A DNA stretch of 55,567 nucleotides from Acidobacteriota bacterium. Its GTDB lineage: Bacteria > Acidobacteriota > Vicinamibacteria > Vicinamibacterales > UBA2999. This document shows, one piece after another, positions 20,929 to 33,908 of this stretch. The stretch covers positions 1-55,567 of the forward strand of contig JANMUX010000521.1 in assembly GCA_031392125.1 (NCBI GenBank), given 5' to 3'. A model generated the notes under the pieces. That model was not told where the DNA came from and searched no databases. It saw nothing but the letters and a program-made list of their open reading frames with translations. A program made the translations under genes and the position numbers. Position 1 is the first letter of the stretch. The number at the start of each line of letters is the position of its first letter.

Positions 20929-22017
20929 TCACGGCGTCGCGACGTACCCTTTGCGCGCGCGCACCATTAAAGCTGGGTCGCGCACTTCGACGCGGATGGT
21001 GTGCCAGCGGCCATCCTTGTAGCCCGGGCTCGGGTAGCCCAGGTAGTACTGCTGGCTCAGTTCGTCGGCAATGCTCGCGACTGCCGGATCGAGGTCGCGC
21101 GGGTCGCGCACGATCTCGGTGCGGCCGCCGCTGTCGTCGGTCATCTCTCGCAGGGCCAGAACGTTCAGGCGCTCGTCGCCACCGCCCATTGAATAGGTGC
21201 CGCGTCCGCTACCGCCGCCGGTGGGCGGATACTGCGGTTGCGGCATGGGCAGGCGACCGCCGCCGCCGCGGCCGGCGCCACCAGGGAATGGAAACGGAAT
21301 GGGCAAGCGCGGACGCGGTTGCTGAATCGGAGGCGCCGGCCGCTGAAAGGTCGCCTGGCCCTGCCCATCAATCCCGACCGCGTACACCATTACTTCCGTC
21401 TCGCGAATCACGCGCTTTACGTCGCCAATCTCGGTACGGCTGCTGGTGTCGTTGCCATCCGAGATAATCACGATCGCCTTCTTGCGGTTCTGCCCGCTTT
21501 GCGCCATCGGCACTGCTTCAATCACGCCGTCGTACATCGCAGTGCCGCCGTTGGGATGGATGCGCCCGACCATAGTGGCCAAACGATTGCGGTCGTTGGT
21601 CCAGTCCAGCACGAGGTCGGCGCTGGCGCTGAAGCGGTAGAGGAAGAACTCGTCGAGCTCGTCGTTCATCAGGCGGAAGAACCGGTCGATGGAACTGACG
21701 GCCGCCGTCCACTTGTCACCAACCATGCTGCCGCTCGTGTCGACAACAATGCCCAGGCTCACCGGTGTGCGGTCGGCATTGAAGTGCGTGACCTCGACCA
21801 GCTTGTTGTCTTCGTAGATGACGAAGTCCTCTTTGGTCAGCCGGCCGGCAAAGCGGCCAGACCGGTCGCTGACCGTCGCCGTTACGTTGATCAGCTCGAC
21901 GCCGCTCTTGAAGCGGAAGCCGTCCGGTTGCTGCGCGAGCGGATTGACGCTCGCCAGCGCGAGCAGCACCGCCACGATTGCCAGGGCGCGAGGTCCGTGC
22001 TTCATGTCCATCTCCAT
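20929..22017 (-). CDS. Secreted VWA domain protein
   Basis: MIDAS DTSGS in GIVVDTSGSM. Signal peptide. Resembles the VWFA-related family common in Acidobacteria (from memory). The start overlaps the upstream stop by 1 nt (TAATG). Confidence 0.8.
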   Translation of the reverse strand: MEMDMKHGPRALAIVAVLLALASVNPLAQQPDGFRFKSGVELINVTATVSDRSGRFAGRLTKEDFVIYEDNKLVEVTHFNADRTPVSLGIVVDTSGSMVGDKWTAAVSSIDRFFRLMNDELDEFFLYRFSASADLVLDWTNDRNRLATMVGRIHPNGGTAMYDGVIEAVPMAQSGQNRKKAIVIISDGNDTSSRTEIGDVKRVIRETEVMVYAVGIDGQGQATFQRPAPPIQQPRPRLPIPFPFPGGAGRGGGGRLPMPQPQYPPTGGGSGRGTYSMGGGDERLNVLALREMTDDSGGRTEIVRDPRDLDPAVASIADELSQQYYLGYPSPGYKDGRWHTIRVEVRDPALMVRARKGYVATP

Positions 22018-22892
22018 TACTTCAAGATCACACTGACCGGCTGCTCGCCCTCAGCAGCCAGCGGCGCCGCGCCGCGCCGATCGACATGCGGCAACACGCC
22101 TTCGTCTGTCCTGAAGCTTACGCGATACCGCGACACCGAGGCCGGCGCGTCCAACGACACCACGAACGGCGATTCGTCGCCGGCGCCAAGCTTGAGAAAA
22201 TCGACATCGGCTTTTGCGCTGGTGATGAACGCCCCTTGCCGATCGAACAGGAAAACCACCGCCGTCAGGCGTTCGACGGGCTGGCCGGCCGCCGGATTGC
22301 GGACAAGTCCCGACACCGCGAGTTTCTGGTTCTGCCGCTCATGCCGCAGTGAGACCAATTCCAGCGGGCTATTGGGACCGACGGCGACCGCGGTCGTGCC
22401 GCGCGGGTCCGCCATCATCCAGGCGAGGCCGCCGAGCAGGACGATCAGCAACAGCGCGGCCGCAATCGCGAGCGAGCGCTGCCCACCGCTGGTCTCTCGC
22501 GGCTGGGTGGCGGCGCCCAAGAAGCCCGACGAGTGCGCCACCTCGCGCGCCACCGGCGCGGATTGAAGCGGAAGCTCAGACGAGGTCGGCTCCGTTGCGG
22601 CGACGACCCTCGGCACCGCTGCGAAAGCCAGCGGCGCTGGCGCCCACGGGGCGCGCACGACGGGCTTCTCGGTTACGGCCGGACGCGCCTGAAAACCGGT
22701 GGCGTGCTCAGGCGACAGATCCTGCCAGCCGTGACCCGGATCCGCTGCAGGGTCGGAGGCGGAAATCGACAACGCGGCCACGCGAGCCGCAGAGCGCCGC
22801 TTCTCGTCCCGCGCCAGTCGCCAGGCCGTCACGCTCATTACGAGCGCGACACCGAGCGACACCACGGTGACGGCCAATAGCACTATCTCCAT
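22017..22892 (-). CDS. Single-pass membrane protein, hypothetical (DUF3426-like C-terminus)
   Basis: ATG 22892 lies 5 nt after GGAG. N-terminal TM helix EIVLLAVTVVSLGVALVMSV. A second TM helix mid-protein, then a beta-rich C-terminal domain. Confidence 0.55.
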   Translation of the reverse strand: MEIVLLAVTVVSLGVALVMSVTAWRLARDEKRRSAARVAALSISASDPAADPGHGWQDLSPEHATGFQARPAVTEKPVVRAPWAPAPLAFAAVPRVVAATEPTSSELPLQSAPVAREVAHSSGFLGAATQPRETSGGQRSLAIAAALLLIVLLGGLAWMMADPRGTTAVAVGPNSPLELVSLRHERQNQKLAVSGLVRNPAAGQPVERLTAVVFLFDRQGAFITSAKADVDFLKLGAGDESPFVVSLDAPASVSRYRVSFRTDEGVLPHVDRRGAAPLAAEGEQPVSVILK

Positions 22893-22932
22893 ATGCACTC
22901 CAGCACTTCAGGATCCCAGCACTTCAGCACTT
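22893..22932. repeat. Five tandem octamers (cagcactt family) filling an intergenic spacer
   Basis: The words are atgcactc, cagcactt, caggatcc, cagcactt, cagcactt. On the minus-strand mRNA this tract contains the SD of the downstream gene. Confidence 0.8.
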
Positions 22933-22936
22933 GTAC

Positions 22937-24037
22937 CTATCGCAGCCTGAACTCGACGCCGACTTGCACGACCACGTCCACCGGCACACCCTTCATGCGT
23001 CCCGGCGCAAACCGCCACTGGCGCACTGCCTGGATCGCGCGCTCGTTAAGCCCGCCTCGCAGTCCGCGCAACACCTTGACGTCGCCCACCGTGCCGTCGC
23101 GGCGCACGACGATCTCGAGCTCCACTTCGCCTTCAATGTTCGCGCGCCGCGCTTCGTCCGAGTAGTCCGCCTTGACTTCGCGCAGCAGCCGTGGCGGCTC
23201 AACGCCGCTGCCCGGGCGGAACGGCCCGCCGCCGGTGCCACCGCCGGAGCCATCGCCGACGCCAGAGCCATCACCTTCACCAAGACCGGTACCGCGGCCG
23301 CTACCCGCGCCGCCGCCTGCGCCAGGTCCCTGGCTGGGCGGCGTTTCCGGCACTTTGGCGAGCACGCCTTCGCGGTTCTCCGCTTCGGCGGGCTTGCTGG
23401 CAATTGGCGCCATCACCGGCGGCAATACCTTCGCTTCAAGCGGCGGAGGTGGCGGCTCGGGAGGTCTAGGAACCGGCCGCATGGGCGGCGGCAGCTTGTG
23501 CGCCGGCAAGGGGCTGCTGATCTTCTCCACGCCCTTGCGCATGGCCTTGGGCGGGGGGGCCTTCTGCATCAACCCGCCGCCACCACCACCGCCCCCTGGT
23601 CCGGGCGACACGAGAAACACTAACCGGACAGGTTCGGGATCCTTCAGCGGCTCGGTGCGCTCGTCAGCCACCGCCAGTCCGAGACTTGCGATGAACAGAA
23701 CGGAGGCCACGGCCAGCCCATGCAGGCTCGTCGATACCACCATCGGCACGGTCGTCGAACGTTGCGCCCGCACGCCTTGCGCAAACAGTTCGCGGCCCAG
23801 GCCGAGCCCACCGGTTACGGCGACCGCCGAGCCGGTCTTGAGAGCGCGGACCGCGCGAACTGCTTCATCGTGCGCGACGTAGGTCGATAGGTCAGGACGA
23901 CCGCCGGTAGGCAGCTGAGCGGCGATCGATCGGATCTCGCCCCGCGCCACTAACTCGAGCACGCGTGCTTCAGACACTCCGCCGGCTTCCGCAATGTCGC
24001 GGGCCGTGTAGACGTCCGGTGGAAGGTTTCCTTGCAT
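22937..24037 (-). CDS. TonB-family energy transducer with an N-terminal helix-turn-helix-like segment
   Basis: C-terminal TonB domain (RANIEGEVELEIVVRRDGTVGDVKVLRG...AIQAVRQWRFAP). Pro- and Gly-rich linkers. One TM helix. N-terminus YTARDIAEAGGVSEARVLELVARGEI resembles excisionase/MerR-type HTH. Confidence 0.8.
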   Translation of the reverse strand: MQGNLPPDVYTARDIAEAGGVSEARVLELVARGEIRSIAAQLPTGGRPDLSTYVAHDEAVRAVRALKTGSAVAVTGGLGLGRELFAQGVRAQRSTTVPMVVSTSLHGLAVASVLFIASLGLAVADERTEPLKDPEPVRLVFLVSPGPGGGGGGGGLMQKAPPPKAMRKGVEKISSPLPAHKLPPPMRPVPRPPEPPPPPLEAKVLPPVMAPIASKPAEAENREGVLAKVPETPPSQGPGAGGGAGSGRGTGLGEGDGSGVGDGSGGGTGGGPFRPGSGVEPPRLLREVKADYSDEARRANIEGEVELEIVVRRDGTVGDVKVLRGLRGGLNERAIQAVRQWRFAPGRMKGVPVDVVVQVGVEFRLR

Positions 24038-28705: not shown

Positions 28706-28724
28706 GGCTGCGCGGGCACCGTGT

Positions 28725-29585
28725 TCAAGGCCGCAAGCCCAAAGCTGTGCGCCATTCCTTTCGACTCTGCGCAGTGATCTGTTCTATCGCCAGGCTCTCG
28801 CTCACGTAGCGCCAGATTGCGCGCGAGACCCAGATGACCGACCCGGCGTTCAGCGTCTGCCCGGCTTCCCCATAATCCGCAACGAGCGCCGTGCCGACAT
28901 GCTCGATGAAGTAGGCGTCGCCGGGATACGGCTTCGACGGAGGGCCTATGATCGGCGGCGGGGATGGTAACGCCGCGCCGTCGGACGGTAGCACCGGGTT
29001 ATTGGGGCGCCAGTGTTCGCGCGGGATGTCCAGCCATTGCGGCTCGGCGGGGGTGCCCAACGGCTCTGCTCCGTCATTGCCGCCCCCGAGCACGTCGACG
29101 CGCTGCGACGGGCTCGCAATCGCATCGTGCGACACGCCGGTAATGGTGTAAGGCCCGACTTGTCGAGGAAAGCCCACCGGCGGACGGTACTGGCCCTCGC
29201 CATTTGTTTTTCCGACGAAGCCCCACCCTTCGTAGCCTTCCGCCTTCAGTCGCGCCAGAACGAGCTTGGTGAACTCGTGGCAGGTCGCGGCCGTGTTCGT
29301 CTGCAGCAGGCCGGGATGCTCGGCGGCCACTTGCCGGACCAGCGGCAAGTGGTTGACCTGCACAGACGTCAGCGGGGTGGGCCCGGAGGCCTGAGGAGCC
29401 TCGTCCGTGGCCGAATCGCCTGTAAAGGGCAACTGCTCGGTAAGCCTGATGACAGTCATGTCGATCAGGATCCGGCACTGTGCCTGCATGGCGTCATCCC
29501 AGCCATGCTGTTTGGCGAGTGCCGCGAACGGATGCGCCACGATGGTTCGGATCACTTCCTCGTTGCTCGTTTTCTTGTCAGCCAT
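28725..29585 (-). CDS. Hypothetical protein, no family recognised (third gene of the heme operon)
   Basis: ATG 29585 lies 22 nt after the upstream stop, with AAGGGA SD. G/C-rich third positions. No signal peptide or TM helix seen. Confidence 0.6.
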   Translation of the reverse strand: MADKKTSNEEVIRTIVAHPFAALAKQHGWDDAMQAQCRILIDMTVIRLTEQLPFTGDSATDEAPQASGPTPLTSVQVNHLPLVRQVAAEHPGLLQTNTAATCHEFTKLVLARLKAEGYEGWGFVGKTNGEGQYRPPVGFPRQVGPYTITGVSHDAIASPSQRVDVLGGGNDGAEPLGTPAEPQWLDIPREHWRPNNPVLPSDGAALPSPPPIIGPPSKPYPGDAYFIEHVGTALVADYGEAGQTLNAGSVIWVSRAIWRYVSESLAIEQITAQSRKEWRTALGLRP

Positions 29586-29607
29586 CTTCTGGCGTCCCTT
29601 CTGACCT

Positions 29608-31962
29608 TTACAGCGTCTTCAGATACGCGAGCAGTGCCCCAACTGGCGAGCCCAGCAGACGGCGCTCAATCTCTCGTCGATGCTCAACCGGATCAAGACC
29701 GCTCGTATCGGGACACAGTTCGGCGCCGAACGTATGTCCGGTATTCTTCTTTCCTGGGACCGTGGTGTCGTATTCCTTGATCAGCATTGTGTCGTTGGCA
29801 GAATACCGGGCCGTCGGCCGCTCCAGCCACTCGAAGCCCACCAGGGCTTCGTCGTAGTAGACGTTGCCGCGAAGAAATCGTACCGGCCGCGTGGCCGGGC
29901 ACACCACTTGGCCGAGCGTGGGAACCGATCCATTGTGCAGATACGGCGCCTGTGCCCAGATCCCGTGCAGCATGTCGGCCTTGTATCCGGCGGTGCCCTC
30001 GGCCACGCGCCGGGGCGTGTCGCGGAAGTACTCGTCGAGCCGTGCCTGCCAGTCGCCCTGCGGCATGCACCAATCGGCGCCCGGCTGCCCCTGGTGGTTC
30101 AGGCCGTAGATGCGACAGGCTTCGAGCACGAGCGCGGACAAGCCGTAACGCGACACGCTGGTGTTCACCAACGTGCGATTGGGGTCCACCCCCAAGGACG
30201 ACACCGGGTAGATGGTCTGGTTGCGCGGCGCGTGGCAGCTGGCGCACTGCGAGTTGAATAACGCCTTGCCCTCGCGCGCCCTCACCAAGTCGACGCTGCT
30301 GAACGGATAGGGCGGCGGCGGCAGGTGATCGATGAACGGGTTGAGCGGCTCGTGAATGCGCACGTTCACCATGCGCGGGTCGCCGGTCGCCGAGGCGCCC
30401 GACGCCAGCGTGCGCGACGACGCGCCTTGATTGCCATCCCAGTTGGCGTGGTACCGTTCGGTCGCCCAGTTGACGCTCTTGACGTCAATCGGCGCGGGCA
30501 CCGGCGGCGCCCACGCCGCGATGTTCTTGAAGACCCGCTCGCCCGCCGCCACCGCATCGCTCACCGGTCCGGTCATGCCCGGCACGTCGGCCGGCAGGCC
30601 GTTGGCAATGGAAAATCCCGTAAAGAACGGACTGTTGGGATTGTCCTGTTTTACAAACTCCAGGAAGCTGTTGTCCGACCGACGGGTGTGGATTGCAACC
30701 AGCCCCGAGGCAATGCCGAACGCGTCCATCTGGCCGGGCCGATCTTCGAGCACGTCGGGCAGCGGGCCCTTGTAAGCGTTGTTCTTCGCGACGACGTGGT
30801 AAATGAAATGTGTCTTCACGCCCACGGCAATCAGATCCTGCATGACGCTGGGGAACTGGTCGGCCACGGCCAGCGCCTGGATCTTTCCGCGGGCGATCTG
30901 CGAAGGCGACGAACCGTACAGCGTTTCCGGCTGCTGGCGCGCCTTGTCCAGCATCTCCCGGTATAGGGCCCGGACCGCATTGGTGTTTGGCGTGATGCCC
31001 GCGGGGTTCACCGGGGTGGACGCCGCCGGATCGAATCCAGACCGGACCAGCGCGGCGGCGGTCAACATCATCAACTTCGAGAAGTACTGCGCCTCGATCT
31101 CGGTGTTGGGCATGCCGGGGAGGAACTTCATCTTGCCGCCGGTCATGACGCGGCCGACGTGGCAGGCCGCGCACGAGAAGAACACGCGGTCCATCGCGCC
31201 CGGACTGCCGAAGCCCGGCCGATCACGCTCCCAGTTCTCCTCCTTGTCAGCGGTCTTCGCCTTGGCCACAAGGAGGCTGGTGTTCTGGAACACCCGCCGC
31301 GCCAACAACCGGCCGTCATACAGCTTCGTTTCAGCCGCCGACAAGGGCTCGAAGGTGCGCGGGTTCTCGAACGCGAAACCAAACGGCAGCGGCGACTGCC
31401 GTTCGCGCGCCGGCCGCGCGACGCCATCGACGTAGTCGGACGGCTGCGGTCCGACACCGATGTGATCCATGGTCCACGCCGACGCCGTGGATCCCGCACC
31501 CGCCGGCACGCGTGCCTCGCGCTTCCAGATGCGGGCAATCGCGCGCAGGGTGGGATCGGCATGATTCGGATCGAGATCGAGAAGGGTCTTGAAGAGCACG
31601 AACGGCACGCCGTTGAAGCCGACGGGGTTGTCGTTGAACCAGGCCCAAGCCAGGCGGGGCGTCTGGCCACTTCGGAATCCGTAGCTCGCCGCGCGGGTCG
31701 GGTCGGTGTCGTTCAGGTAGTCGGCGATGACGCGCTCGCGCTTGACGACCTCCGCCGGCCAGTCGGTCACGACCTGGCCATCGACCCACGACCGGATCTC
31801 CACGCCGGTGTCATCCTTCAGCGGGCCGACCCTCCCGCCGGCGGGCTGTTGGGCTGAAGATGTGGGCTCAGGGTTCGGAGAGGCGGCGCGAACCTGGTAG
31901 CCGATCACCGCCACACACAGCAGCGCGACAAGACAGAGCTGGCGATTCCACGAAAAGTTCAT
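29608..31962 (-). CDS. Secreted protein with two c-type heme sites and a peroxidase-like C-terminus
   Basis: ATG 31962 lies 8 nt after GAGG. Signal peptide MNFSWNRQLCLVALLCVAVIGYQVRA. CAACH (31159-31173) and CASCH (30232-30246). APYLHNGSVPTL near the C-terminus. The track ORF extends to 32142 but would overlap the upstream gene. Confidence 0.75.
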   Translation of the reverse strand: MNFSWNRQLCLVALLCVAVIGYQVRAASPNPEPTSSAQQPAGGRVGPLKDDTGVEIRSWVDGQVVTDWPAEVVKRERVIADYLNDTDPTRAASYGFRSGQTPRLAWAWFNDNPVGFNGVPFVLFKTLLDLDPNHADPTLRAIARIWKREARVPAGAGSTASAWTMDHIGVGPQPSDYVDGVARPARERQSPLPFGFAFENPRTFEPLSAAETKLYDGRLLARRVFQNTSLLVAKAKTADKEENWERDRPGFGSPGAMDRVFFSCAACHVGRVMTGGKMKFLPGMPNTEIEAQYFSKLMMLTAAALVRSGFDPAASTPVNPAGITPNTNAVRALYREMLDKARQQPETLYGSSPSQIARGKIQALAVADQFPSVMQDLIAVGVKTHFIYHVVAKNNAYKGPLPDVLEDRPGQMDAFGIASGLVAIHTRRSDNSFLEFVKQDNPNSPFFTGFSIANGLPADVPGMTGPVSDAVAAGERVFKNIAAWAPPVPAPIDVKSVNWATERYHANWDGNQGASSRTLASGASATGDPRMVNVRIHEPLNPFIDHLPPPPYPFSSVDLVRAREGKALFNSQCASCHAPRNQTIYPVSSLGVDPNRTLVNTSVSRYGLSALVLEACRIYGLNHQGQPGADWCMPQGDWQARLDEYFRDTPRRVAEGTAGYKADMLHGIWAQAPYLHNGSVPTLGQVVCPATRPVRFLRGNVYYDEALVGFEWLERPTARYSANDTMLIKEYDTTVPGKKNTGHTFGAELCPDTSGLDPVEHRREIERRLLGSPVGALLAYLKTL

Positions 31963-31978
31963 GCAAATAACCTCGATG

Positions 31979-33781
31979 TCAGCCGGGGGACGGCGACGGC
32001 CAGAACCGTTGCGTCGTCCCAGTGTCCGCAAACGTGAGGGAGAAAGTGGTCGTGTAGAGGTTCTGGTCATCCAGTTGGAGACGGCCGAAACGGCGCTCGA
32101 ACGGGAACGAGGGTTCGCCGGCGGCCGGCTCGGGGCGACCAAGGTCCTGCAAGGCCAGCAACGCGATCATCGACTCGACGATGATTACGGGCGACACATG
32201 CTGGCCCAGGCAGGTGTGCCGGCTCCAGCCGTAGTGCAGGTAGTGCTCGCGCGGCCGGTCCAGGATGAAGGCATCGGGTTCGGGCACGTCCCTCATGGCC
32301 GAGCCGTGAGAGGCGAAGACGAGGGTCCCGGCCGCGAGCGGCCGCCCGCCCGCAATCTGCGCACCGTCCCGCGCGCACTTGCGCAACAGCACCTCGCCTT
32401 GCGGCTGCAGCCGAAGCGCTTCCTGAAAATAGCTGTAGAGACCGGCGCGGCTCTCTTTCACCTTGACGCCGCTTAATACGTTGAGGGCAAGCGCCTTGGC
32501 CTCGGCGAAGCTGCCATAGCGGTAGCCGCCGGGCCCCGAGGTGGCAAACTCTCCCTCTTGCAGGCGGATCAACGAATCGATCACGCGGCAGGTGGCTTCC
32601 TCCTGGCCGGCGACCGCGCCGACCATGGTCCCCATCACGTTCTCGGCGATGCGCAAGTCGCTGACCAGCCGCAGATCGAGATCGGCGGGCCGGGTCGCGC
32701 CCGGCGCGGATTGTCCCAACTGGAAGCGGACGAGGCGCGTGAGCAGGGTGTCGTCGACCTCGAGACCCTCGAGCAGGTGCTGGCGCGCGAGTCCGACCTC
32801 GCGCAACAGATAAGCGAGCAGCTCGCGGCATGACCGCAACCCGCGAATCGCCACGGTCGGGTCCTTCTGCACGTTGTTGAAGAAATGCTGGAACGCGGCC
32901 TTGATCCAGAAGTACATCTGCTGCTCGTCGGGGATGATTCCGTCCTTCTTGCCCAACGCCGTCTCTGGCTGGCCGTCGATTGGCGTGCCGTAGTAGGTGA
33001 GCATCTCGGCGGTCAGCTCGAACGATCCCGGGTGGGCCGCGACCGGCACGCCAAGGTAGCGATGGCCCATCGTCACCGGCACGTAGCGCGCGAGGCTCGG
33101 CACGACATCAATGACCGACTGGCCGGCGGCGCGTGCGATGGCGACGGCATGACCGACGCGCCGCATGCAATCCTCGTGAAGCCATCCGGTGATCCGGTCG
33201 GCGTCCTGCCGGCTGCACGCTGCGGCCAGCAAGCGCCGGTCCGGCTCGTAGAGTGAGTTGTCGTCGGTGCTCAGCACGAACGTGCTGAAGCCGCCGTTAT
33301 GGGCCGGCGTCATGACCTTCATCATCTCGACGCCGTATGGCTCGACCGTGAACTCCTGGTCGCGCTCGAGCACGTCGCGCACGGCGGCGTCATCGACGAC
33401 AAGCACGGGCCCGAACGGAGGCTGGAACACGGGGCCCTTGCGCCGGATTTCCTCCAGCATCGGGAAGGGCGTGAACTTGAGGAAGAAGCCGACGGTCGCG
33501 CCCACCGCGCGGCCCTGGCGGAGGGCGTGCAGTTTCAGCGACTGTAGCTCGCGCCCTTCGGCGTCGTCGAGCTGCGAGAGGCGGGCCTTCCCGACCAGCT
33601 CTTGCAGCCGGGCAACGGCGACCGGATTGTCGGCACAAATGCGATCGATGGTCTCGAAGAAGGACCGTAACGCGGTGGCGGCGTCACTCGTGAGAAAGCC
33701 GAGGTTGGGCGCGGCCGGATCGCCCATGGCCCGCGCTCGAGACGGCGTGACTTCGATGTTGTGTTCGACAGAGACCCGCAT
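31979..33781 (-). CDS. Atypical large cytochrome P450 (~600 aa)
   Basis: Cys-ligand loop HYGWSRHTCLGQH (Cys codon 32210-32212). ExxR (EALR). I-helix-like AGQEEAT. ATG 33781 lies 5 nt after GAGGG. The track ORF runs to 34003, which would overlap acs. Confidence 0.75.
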   Translation of the reverse strand: MRVSVEHNIEVTPSRARAMGDPAAPNLGFLTSDAATALRSFFETIDRICADNPVAVARLQELVGKARLSQLDDAEGRELQSLKLHALRQGRAVGATVGFFLKFTPFPMLEEIRRKGPVFQPPFGPVLVVDDAAVRDVLERDQEFTVEPYGVEMMKVMTPAHNGGFSTFVLSTDDNSLYEPDRRLLAAACSRQDADRITGWLHEDCMRRVGHAVAIARAAGQSVIDVVPSLARYVPVTMGHRYLGVPVAAHPGSFELTAEMLTYYGTPIDGQPETALGKKDGIIPDEQQMYFWIKAAFQHFFNNVQKDPTVAIRGLRSCRELLAYLLREVGLARQHLLEGLEVDDTLLTRLVRFQLGQSAPGATRPADLDLRLVSDLRIAENVMGTMVGAVAGQEEATCRVIDSLIRLQEGEFATSGPGGYRYGSFAEAKALALNVLSGVKVKESRAGLYSYFQEALRLQPQGEVLLRKCARDGAQIAGGRPLAAGTLVFASHGSAMRDVPEPDAFILDRPREHYLHYGWSRHTCLGQHVSPVIIVESMIALLALQDLGRPEPAAGEPSFPFERRFGRLQLDDQNLYTTTFSLTFADTGTTQRFWPSPSPG

Positions 33782-33908
33782 AGCCGCCCTCGATGAAGAC
33801 GTGCTTCCGCCGACGAGCGGGAACGCGCTGAGCATAGTCGACGGTGATGCGGTAAGCAATAAAGGTAGTGCCGCGTGACGGAGCCGCCGCGAGGAATATA
33901 CTTCCCCC

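Follow-up and report, generated by a model that had tools for sequence, protein, structure and literature searches.

Comparative genomic data indicate that a large P450-fold protein and an exported di-heme c-type protein are encoded as a conserved gene pair in Acidobacteriota and in Alpha-, Beta-, and Gammaproteobacteria. We describe this pair from a 55,567-nucleotide stretch of DNA (the window) of an Acidobacteriota bacterium of the Vicinamibacterales lineage UBA2999 (GenBank assembly GCA_031392125.1, contig JANMUX010000521.1), in which three consecutive genes, here called G1, G2, and G3, had initially been annotated as a self-contained heme operon. The observations cover the folds, the motifs, the signal status as read from the sequence, the pairing, the DyP substitution, the fusions, and the twin-arginine translocation (Tat) variants of the family, and their common theme is one P450 clade coupled to a heme peroxidase or oxygenase, either by adjacency (with partners of two unrelated folds) or by fusion. 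We tentatively propose, at somewhat less than even confidence, that G1 and G2 constitute a two-enzyme heme cascade, a dioxygenase or peroxidase and a self-sufficient P450, that would act on unsaturated lipids, with G3 as a passenger.

A conserved pair of heme proteins

We scanned one genome per species, recovered 76 loci with relatives of G1, and searched these for G2 and G3. G2 adjoins G1 in 28 of the 34 Acidobacteriota/Vicinamibacterales loci, in 27 of which it is the next gene downstream and shares the strand of G1, and in 11 of 16 loci from Methylococcaceae and from Paracoccaceae/Ruegeria (Rhodobacterales), where the identities are ~55% for G1 and ~49% for G2. The adjacency extends to 15 of 25 distant loci in which G1 is only 30 to 36% identical, including those of at least seven Nitrosomonas species or strains, Methylocaldum, and Methylobacter; in these the order is reversed (G2 and then G1) and the shared strand is retained. 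The flanks of the pair are unrelated between loci. The identities of G1 and G2 co-vary closely (r = 0.96 over 42 loci and r = 0.87 within Acidobacteriota), and when the pair is approached from the G2 side, G1 is present at 36 of 56 informative metagenome loci. Most members of the G1 family belong to Vicinamibacterales, Rhodobacterales, and Geodermatophilaceae/Egibacteraceae. These gene neighborhoods argue that the link between G1 and G2 is strong but not obligatory and that the pair is a real functional unit. Of the trio, the co-conservation of which the initial annotation had named as a test, G1 and G2 are co-conserved across phyla, while G3 is not.

G1 (31979 to 33781, minus strand; 600 amino acids) is, as judged from its sequence and a structural model, a P450-fold heme-thiolate protein ("P450L") without a signal peptide, and the motifs, fold, and start site all support the earlier description of an oversized protein with P450 hallmarks. 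The Pfam p450 model (PF00067) does not match G1 even at E ≤ 1, and the distant family members P0184, P0187, P0206, and P0234 pass it (34 to 53 bits against a cutoff of 22.8 bits) over their C-terminal third only. Single-sequence matches of G1 to TxtE and other CYPs are weak, with TxtE the best in both the PDB and NCBIfam at 34 bits. The G1 family comprises at least 495 homologues of ~600 amino acids, and its profile matches bacterial CYPs down to 3e-15. An AlphaFold2 model built from a deeper alignment (predicted local distance difference test [pLDDT] score, 83.5; predicted template modeling score, 0.83) superseded a poor first model from a shallow alignment (pLDDT, 67). A Foldseek search of the PDB with this model gave 1337 matches at E ≤ 1e-3, and all 50 matches listed are P450s; target-normalized template modeling scores against class-I bacterial P450s are ~0.72 to 0.76.

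The presumed heme thiolate, Cys524, lies in the loop YGWSRHTCLG (residues 517 to 526; 32204 to 32233, minus strand), which aligns with the FGxGxHxCxG loop of solved P450s and in which G518, R521, H522, C524, L525, and G526 are invariant in two family alignments that span 29 to 92% identity. E454 and R457 of the K-helix ExxR motif, E454-A-L-R457 (32411 to 32422, minus strand), are likewise invariant in the family alignments. The acid-alcohol pair (D/E-T) of the I helix, which serves O2 activation, is typical of P450s but not universal. At the I-helix kink of G1, AGQEEAT (residues 391 to 397; 32591 to 32611, minus strand), Glu394-Glu395 stands in place of the acid-Thr pair, and the model has a helix break at residues 391 and 392. 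E395 is invariant in both family alignments, and E394 is invariant in one and present in at least 90% of sequences in the other; T-T is kept at this position by the nearest plain P450s (D/E-T-T) and by three of four aligned DyP fusions (D/E-T-T or P-T-T). No ferredoxin-type Cys motif occurs in the credible open reading frames of the window, a weak test that agrees with the initial annotation, in which no ferredoxin or reductase partner had been noticed near G1.

G1 thus shares with class-I bacterial P450s (TxtE, CYP134A1, CYP109, and EryK) the fold, the ExxR motif, and a bacterial-type HxC Cys loop. It differs from them in being ~200 amino acids longer, through an N-terminal helical extension (~residues 28 to 115) and insertions, in being missed by the Pfam model, in the missing I-helix Thr, and in its genetic linkage to peroxidases rather than to ferredoxins. 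A search of PLSDB plasmids returned no member of the G1 family and generic P450s only, at ~25% identity. Nitrosomonas-type homologues of the P450 (L052, L056, L064, and others) have no signal peptide; their N terminus is a conserved amphipathic stretch that leads into a proline-rich linker (for example, PLPPPPPGPPNPDDPKY), an arrangement that recalls the membrane anchor and hinge of microsomal P450s.

We rejected the assignment of G1 as a TxtE-type enzyme, given a marginal match that is overtaken by other CYPs in both profile and structure searches. The same match nonetheless invites an explanation in which the pair handles reactive nitrogen (nitric oxide [NO] and hydroxylamine), the P450 binding NO as P450nor and TxtE do and the di-heme protein serving as a periplasmic oxidoreductase. 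TxtE, an NO- and O2-using enzyme, is the best single-sequence match in the PDB and NCBIfam, and the distant members are concentrated in ammonia oxidizers (the Nitrosomonas species and strains mentioned above) and gammaproteobacterial methanotrophs. We consider this explanation very unlikely, however, because the 34-bit match falls behind other CYPs once the family profile or the structure is used, because the Vicinamibacterales, Rhodobacterales, and Geodermatophilaceae/Egibacteraceae that make up most of the family have no nitrogen-cycle link, and because no nir-, nor-, or hao-type genes are found in the clustered neighborhoods.

G2 (29608 to 31962, minus strand; 784 amino acids) is predicted to be a Sec-exported di-heme c-type protein of a RoxA-like branch of the CCP/MauG superfamily ("RoxAL"). 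Inspection of the translation reveals a Sec-type signal peptide at ~residues 1 to 29 (MNFSWNRQLCLVALLCVAVIGYQVRAA, with S as the next residue; 31876 to 31962, minus strand); many homologues have a lipobox Cys at the end of the signal peptide instead. Two CxxCH motifs lie 309 residues apart, so that the signal peptide and the two c-heme sites ~300 residues apart that had been noted at the outset are both in place. The first motif, C264-A-A-C267-H268 (residues 264 to 268; 31159 to 31173, minus strand), has invariant C264, C267, and H268 and, aligned to RoxA 190 to 228, corresponds to the motif of the O2-binding heme of RoxA, C191xxC194H195 (numbering of PMC4496055). The second, C573-A-S-C576-H577 (residues 573 to 577; 30232 to 30246, minus strand), is invariant in the family and falls within Cytochrom_C and Cytochrome_CBB3 matches at residues 561 to 586.

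The affinity of G2 with RoxA extends well beyond the heme motifs. Residues 659 to 696 (GYKADMLHGIWAQAPYLHNGSVPTL; 29875 to 29988, minus strand), a segment that includes APYLHNGSVPTL, match PF21419 (RoxA-like_Cyt-c) at 1e-16 and 60.6 bits against a 26.7-bit cutoff and align to RoxA 494 to 539. The invariant His743 (29734 to 29736, minus strand) is the counterpart of RoxA His641, which lies on the GGHDF segment of RoxA 629 to 650 and is the sixth ligand of the C-terminal heme (heme 2) of that enzyme (PMC4496055). RoxA (PDB 4b2n) is the best and only meaningful PDB relative of G2, at 4.5e-17 with the family profile, and the two are collinear at five segments, which include one at the heme-1 motif, one in the middle, one at PYLHNGSVP, and one at the His641 counterpart.

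These similarities do not make G2 a true rubber oxygenase, an identification that we rejected: the NCBIfam models for RoxA, RoxB, and RoxC (NF050033, NF050034, and NF051462) score 37.7, 40.7, and 48.2 bits against cutoffs of 1000, 900, and 900. We also rejected G2 as an ordinary CCP. Pfam CCP_MauG has no match in G2, and its best NCBIfam match, NF040606 ("di-heme-cytochrome C peroxidase"), reaches 118 bits and falls below the 150-bit cutoff, which a homologue in Nitrosomonas halophila passes at 156.9 bits. The MbnH and MauG-like NCBIfam models score only 10 to 15 bits, and Pfam places no animal-haem-peroxidase domain (PF03098) in either G1 or G2. The earlier assignment of G2 to CCP/MauG-type enzymes therefore holds at the level of the CCP/MauG/RoxA superfamily, within which G2 is RoxA-like rather than MauG-like. 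Like RoxA, RoxB, and RoxC, G2 is a predicted secreted protein in the length range of ~650 to 810 amino acids, with two CxxCH motifs, the PF21419 segment, a His641-type ligand, and PYxHNGSVP. In contrast to RoxA, it is ~120 amino acids longer and its carriers are not rubber degraders; RoxA, moreover, works without a P450. With di-heme CCP and MauG proteins it shares two c-type heme sites and a PYxHxGS segment, but it is approximately twice their size, and its predicted sixth ligand is His rather than Met or Tyr.

Peroxidase partners, exported relatives, and the wider module

Where the RoxA-like gene is absent, the P450 usually adjoins a DyP-type peroxidase (L066, L067, L071, L073, L074, L075, L035, and L036). 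These neighboring DyPs have no Tat signal, and the same DyP subfamily is fused to a P450 in P0238, P0262, P0267, P0309, and P0310 (E = 1e-99 to 1e-133 against the neighboring DyPs). The DyP-P450 fusions, which also include P0272, are ~890 to 915 amino acids long and are among the nearest relatives of G1; peroxidase-P450 fusions occur in both domain orders. Fusions of an animal-haem-peroxidase domain with a P450 (P0291 and P0289) are found in the top 150 relatives of G1 out of 1.84 billion representatives. Family-less proteins of ~215 to 225 amino acids, one or two per locus, always accompany the P450-adjacent DyP (L066, L067, L075, L035, L036, and L074) and have a conserved start, MSNLAGKAYAL, and an FIH(Y/F)ARW motif.

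Such recurrent coupling bears directly on whether G1 and G2 are functionally connected at all. They could instead be mere neighbors that both respond to oxidative conditions, with G1 a conventional NAD(P)H- and ferredoxin-dependent monooxygenase whose partners are encoded elsewhere and G2 a periplasmic peroxidase that removes H2O2. Redox partners of bacterial P450s are often unlinked; in Foldseek and profile searches, G1 falls among class-I bacterial P450s of the ordinary kind; the best NCBIfam match of G2, passed by the Nitrosomonas homologue, is named for a peroxidase; and some G2 homologues (~20 of 56) and acidobacterial G1 genes (6 of 34) have no partner. This explanation nevertheless strikes us as unlikely. 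It does not sit well with an adjacency that is kept over at least three phyla and down to 33 to 36% identity despite order reversal and unrelated flanks, nor with the specific exchange of the di-heme partner for a DyP heme peroxidase whose subfamily is also fused to P450s. The I-helix Thr of classical O2 activation is, in addition, replaced by an invariant Glu in G1, and G2 aligns with RoxA, including the bis-His ligand, and has no Pfam CCP_MauG match.

Tat-exported lipoproteins are predicted within the P450 family: in at least 20 of its cluster representatives, a twin-arginine motif is followed by a lipobox Cys. We know of no described periplasmic P450. Among the proteins with both signals are P0184, P0185, P0187, P0191, P0205, P0206, P0209, and P0298 to P0307, and among the loci are L079, L081, L083, and L084. 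P0206 directly follows a 934-amino-acid RoxA-like gene, a locus at which both proteins are predicted to be periplasmic, while other Tat-lipoprotein P450s are encoded behind Lipase_3 and esterase genes, in the vicinity of a PLD gene. The compartment split that the initial annotation had emphasized, a cytoplasmic P450 beside a periplasmic heme enzyme, is predicted in the window but does not extend to these relatives. A comparable arrangement has been described in Bradyrhizobium, in which the clade VI "BUPO" protein is a fusion of a UPO-like heme-thiolate module, a transmembrane helix, and a di-heme CCP (IPR047758) (bioRxiv 10.1101/2025.11.07.687166). BUPO shows the same heme-thiolate and di-heme pairing, and the same implied topology, as G1 and G2, but it joins the two in one polypeptide, and the fold of its heme-thiolate module is of the UPO/chloroperoxidase type, not the P450 type.

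Clustering of the neighbor genes across the G1 loci (78 loci) revealed further recurrent partners. The commonest third gene is an extended short-chain dehydrogenase (SDR) of the epimerase/3beta-HSD type, present at 27 of the 78 loci, and a beta-propeller protein of ~425 amino acids, with weak SGL/strictosidine-synthase matches and an N-terminal membrane anchor or signal, occurs at 15. Nitrosomonas-type loci (L052, L057, L060, L061, and L069) typically have the propeller, RoxA-like, P450, and SDR genes in this order, although where the SDR and propeller genes lie, or on which strand, varies. In the Vicinamibacterales loci L008 and L012 the propeller and SDR genes are divergent from a P450 gene followed by a RoxA-like gene, and L074, from a metagenome-assembled genome of Egibacteraceae, has u224 (~224 amino acids), DyP, P450, SDR, and propeller genes. 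A signal-peptide protein of ~316 amino acids with a PG_binding_1 domain flanks the P450 at nine loci. We searched the window for homologues of the SDR, beta-propeller, DyP, and PG_binding proteins and found none.

The propeller suggests another role for G2, that of a MauG- or MbnH-like maturase which builds a protein-derived cofactor in a periplasmic partner, such as the propeller or the PG_binding protein, with G1 playing a separate role. MauG and MbnH belong to the same superfamily in the literature, and the propeller gene, with its N-terminal anchor or signal, lies directly upstream of the RoxA-like gene in L057, L060, L061, and L069. We give this role little credence. No candidate substrate gene, whether for a beta-propeller, a PG_binding protein, or another protein, is present in the window; the steadiest partner of G2 is a P450 that is unexported in the Acidobacteriota lineage and so is no periplasmic substrate; and the MbnH and MauG-like models match G2 so faintly.

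The dehydrogenase, in turn, is compatible with a cascade of the kind that we propose but directed at isoprenoids. G2 would cleave or oxygenate a C=C bond of a cis-polyprenyl, squalene/hopanoid, or carotenoid substrate, G1 would oxidize the fragment, and the dehydrogenase, where present, would handle the resulting aldehyde or ketone. Among the relatives of G2, RoxA alone has a solved structure, and the two align at the heme-1 motif, at the RoxA-like segment, and at the His641 counterpart; the commonest third gene encodes a 3beta-HSD/epimerase-type SDR; and the synthesis of hopanoids, sterols, or carotenoids is reported for many carriers (methanotrophs, Nitrosomonas, and Geodermatophilaceae). 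Scores of 38 to 48 bits against RoxA, RoxB, and RoxC cutoffs of 900 to 1000, however, make an isoprenoid substrate quite unlikely, as does the finding that no gene of isoprenoid biosynthesis or catabolism recurs in the clustered neighborhoods. The lipid context, where there is one, consists of lipases, esterases, and PLD, and it is not obvious what Nitrosomonas, a chemolithoautotroph, would gain from cleaving polyisoprene.

The third gene and the layout of the locus

G3 (28725 to 29585, minus strand; 286 amino acids) is, judging by its homologues, a lineage-specific, phage-derived passenger in a variable slot, outside the conserved heme module. The first impression that it matches no known family is confirmed: Pfam, NCBIfam, and PHROGs assign it to none, and nothing in the PDB resembles it. 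It has 27 homologues only; these directly follow Phage_lysozyme or DUF5675 genes, on phage-like contigs with additional faint or weak matches to Phage_integrase, and its residues 80 to 286 are 49% identical to the entire 220-amino-acid phage protein P0136. The one G1 locus that shares it, L003, is a 92%-identical relative with all of the window flanks. In other close relatives the slot is otherwise filled. An EAD1 (PF19955) plus Trypsin_2 gene occupies it in L092 (3111 to 4199) and L156 (1137 to 2270), the G2 proteins of which are 94 to 95% identical to that of the window and the latter of which has the same AAA_22 and ino1 flank, and a short-chain dehydrogenase gene occupies the slot 3' of G2 in 77 to 82% identical relatives (L001 and L093 to L095). 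Because G3 is absent at 77 of 78 loci, has phage-lysis homologues, and is replaced in near-identical genomes, we conclude that it is not part of the module. The self-contained three-gene operon of the initial annotation is accordingly reduced to a conserved pair, with G3 in line with it physically.

The slot between the G2 stop codon and the convergent AAA_22 gene (28706 to 29607) is hypervariable among near-identical genomes, and the EAD1 plus Trypsin_2 architecture is typical of conflict systems. The AAA_22 ATPase next to the slot might belong with the variable effectors rather than with the heme genes.

All three open reading frames have strong homologues elsewhere and are therefore real genes. 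They lie together on the minus strand with the spacers and ribosome-binding motifs originally read there: a 16-nucleotide spacer between G1 and G2 (31963 to 31978, minus strand; CATCGAGGTTATTTGC) contains GAGG, the likely ribosome-binding site of G2, and a 22-nucleotide spacer between G2 and G3, AGGTCAGAAGGGACGCCAGAAG, contains AAGGGA ahead of ATG 29585. Short G1-G2 spacers recur in homologous pairs (15 nucleotides in L001 and 34 nucleotides in L081, by the source gene calls). The neighbors of the trio, as had been described, are an AAA_22 (ExeA-like) gene that converges on it and an acetyl-CoA synthetase gene (acs) that diverges from it. The spacing of the genes suggests that the trio is co-transcribed. 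The 127-bp divergent intergenic region between G1 and acs (33782 to 33908) is, by position only, the presumed promoter region of the pair; consensus promoter and terminator scans gave nothing informative and no minus-strand promoter-like site upstream of G1, and the single promoter-like site that they placed in this gap is on the plus strand, on the acs side.

In six homologous loci (L012, L020, L031, L038, L039, and L043) an in-frame stop lies one to four codons 5' of a conserved MRLS start. Because homologues have these stops just upstream of MRLS, we place the start of G1 at ATG 33781, without an N-terminal signal, and rejected a longer G1 reading frame (from TTG 34003 or ATG 33910) with a Tat-like SRRLRH motif, the upstream translation of which is unconserved. 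The ATG of acs (33909, plus strand) overlaps the in-frame upstream ATG of the G1 frame (33910 to 33908, minus strand) as a CATG palindrome; the extension from ATG 33910 is unconserved and is unused in homologues.

The rest of the window is ordinary chromosome, with genes for DNA polymerase I, methylmalonyl-CoA mutase, inositol-1-phosphate synthase, and ABC transporters, and tRNA and Rfam scans of the entire 55 kb found nothing. The highest G+C content of the window (0.68), with a negative GC skew, is at 22001 to 24000, which coincides with an open reading frame of 366 amino acids, the C terminus of which matches Pfam TonB_C, and a family-less one of 293 amino acids.

A proposed lipid-oxidizing cascade and its significance

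Under the cascade that we propose, G2 would be exported by Sec, be loaded with two c-type hemes in the periplasm, and act as an O2- or peroxide-using oxygenase or peroxidase on a lipid with a C=C bond, yielding a hydroperoxide or other oxygenated intermediate. This activity is modeled on RoxA and, by literature analogy, on PA2077 of Pseudomonas aeruginosa; the likeliest substrate would be a membrane-derived fatty acyl chain or other unsaturated hydrophobic lipid. G1 would be self-sufficient, either rearranging or reducing the peroxide in the manner of diol synthases, allene oxide synthases, and epoxy alcohol synthases or using the peroxide as an oxidant, with no NAD(P)H. The missing I-helix Thr and the lack of ferredoxin motifs in the window both fit such independence from redox partners. 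A lipid substrate fits the Lipase_3, esterase, and PLD genes beside Tat-lipoprotein members and a weak patatin match close to a DyP-P450 fusion. Since G1 is not exported and G2 is periplasmic, the intermediate must cross the membrane and, with G1 on the cytoplasmic side in the Acidobacteriota lineage, would be membrane soluble or taken up. In the fuller modules found elsewhere, the SDR and the membrane-anchored strictosidine-synthase/SGL-like propeller may finish the product, and the biological role could be the synthesis of oxylipin-type signals or the repair of peroxidized lipids. We infer the substrate, the order of the reactions, and the self-sufficiency of G1 by analogy with known systems, and the comparative evidence favors the direction of the peroxide-driven or lipid-hydroperoxide role that the initial annotation had offered as speculation.

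The closest analogies are eukaryotic. In the fungal DOX-CYP fusions, and along the route from COX to PGIS and TXS, a self-sufficient CYP transforms the peroxide product of its partner (PMC13049297). The fungal Ppo/linoleate diol synthases, the 8- and 9-allene oxide synthases, and animal COX with PGIS and TXS all combine a heme dioxygenase/peroxidase with a partner-free P450, as we propose for G2 and G1. The animal-haem-peroxidase-P450 architecture of the fungal linoleate diol synthases is seen in the G1 relatives P0291 and P0289, and several CYPs of the DOX-CYP and COX pathways, like G1, have no canonical I-helix Thr. The differences are equally clear: the place of the animal-haem-peroxidase domain is taken here by a RoxA-like protein with two c-type hemes (or, elsewhere, by a DyP); G1 and G2 are separate proteins, predicted in this lineage to lie on opposite sides of the membrane; and the I helix has Glu-Glu rather than Asn, Thr, or nonpolar residues.

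A bacterial analogy comes from P. aeruginosa, in which PA2077 (a 10S-dioxygenase) and PA2078 (a 7,10-diol synthase, or hydroperoxide isomerase), the "FadCcp" proteins, are periplasmic di-heme Ccp proteins of 624 to 634 amino acids that cluster with RoxA, oxygenate a monounsaturated fatty acid, and isomerize the hydroperoxide (PMC4496055). Compared by description only, they resemble G2 as RoxA-related, double-size, periplasmic di-heme Ccp proteins, and the Nitrosomonas-type homologues of G2, at ~650 amino acids, are near them in size. P. aeruginosa, however, uses two di-heme paralogues and no P450, whereas the pair described here has one di-heme gene and a P450, and the spacing of the heme motifs is 309 residues in G2 against 235 to 245 in FadCcp.

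Several observations weigh against the proposed cascade. About a third of the close G2 homologues (~20 of 56) stand alone with no conserved neighbor, and six of the 34 acidobacterial G1 genes are without G2. The structural neighbors of G1 retrieved by Foldseek are ordinary class-I bacterial monooxygenases. The lipase association is essentially confined to one lineage (L079/L083), the patatin match near a DyP-P450 fusion (L082) is weak, and genes for a lipase, an SDR, or an SGL protein are missing from the window itself. The known activity of DyPs is that of peroxidases, not of dioxygenases. Topology is the main difficulty, in that direct hand-over from a periplasmic G2 to a G1 without an export signal needs a membrane-crossing intermediate; it is softened by the P0206 locus, with both proteins predicted to be periplasmic, and by the Bradyrhizobium heme-thiolate/di-heme CCP fusions with their transmembrane helix. 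Finally, the known hydroperoxide-transforming CYPs have an Asn/nonpolar/Thr pattern in the I helix (PMC13049297), where G1 has Glu-Glu.

A broader formulation, which we regard as possible but rather doubtful, is that of a phylum-spanning oxylipin-type pathway in which a periplasmic RoxA/FadCcp-type dioxygenase (or a DyP) would make a lipid peroxide and a self-sufficient P450 clade, its members cytoplasmic, Tat-lipoprotein, or fused, would rearrange it, often with a dehydrogenase and a propeller hydrolase completing the route. The lipids so produced would serve in signaling or membrane protection, in hosts that range from soil Acidobacteria and marine Rhodobacterales to ammonia oxidizers and methanotrophs.

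The components come from known superfamilies, and the logic of a dioxygenase with a self-sufficient P450 is known from eukaryotes. Full-text literature searches turned up no account of a RoxA-like di-heme protein (or a DyP) combined with a G1-type P450, of the occurrence of this combination in Acidobacteriota, Alpha-, Beta-, and Gammaproteobacteria, and Actinomycetota, of Tat-lipoprotein P450s, or of DyP-P450 fusions; a preprint on "cytochrome P422" deals with an unrelated family. The pair is small, well delimited, and present in culturable strains (Ruegeria, Nitrosomonas, Methylobacter, and Methylocaldum), which makes the hypothesis directly testable. If true, it would reveal a widespread bacterial counterpart of the eukaryotic pairing of heme dioxygenase and self-sufficient P450, built from different parts, namely a DyP peroxidase or a RoxA-like enzyme with two c-type hemes. 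It would also delimit a clade of P450s that mostly escape standard domain models, including apparent Tat-lipoprotein P450s and DyP-P450 fusions, and would provide a function for thousands of soil-metagenome annotations that now read "cytochrome P450 / hypothetical" and "di-heme cytochrome c peroxidase." In ammonia oxidizers and methanotrophs, biogeochemically important organisms with dense internal membranes, it would point to a chemistry of oxidized lipids.

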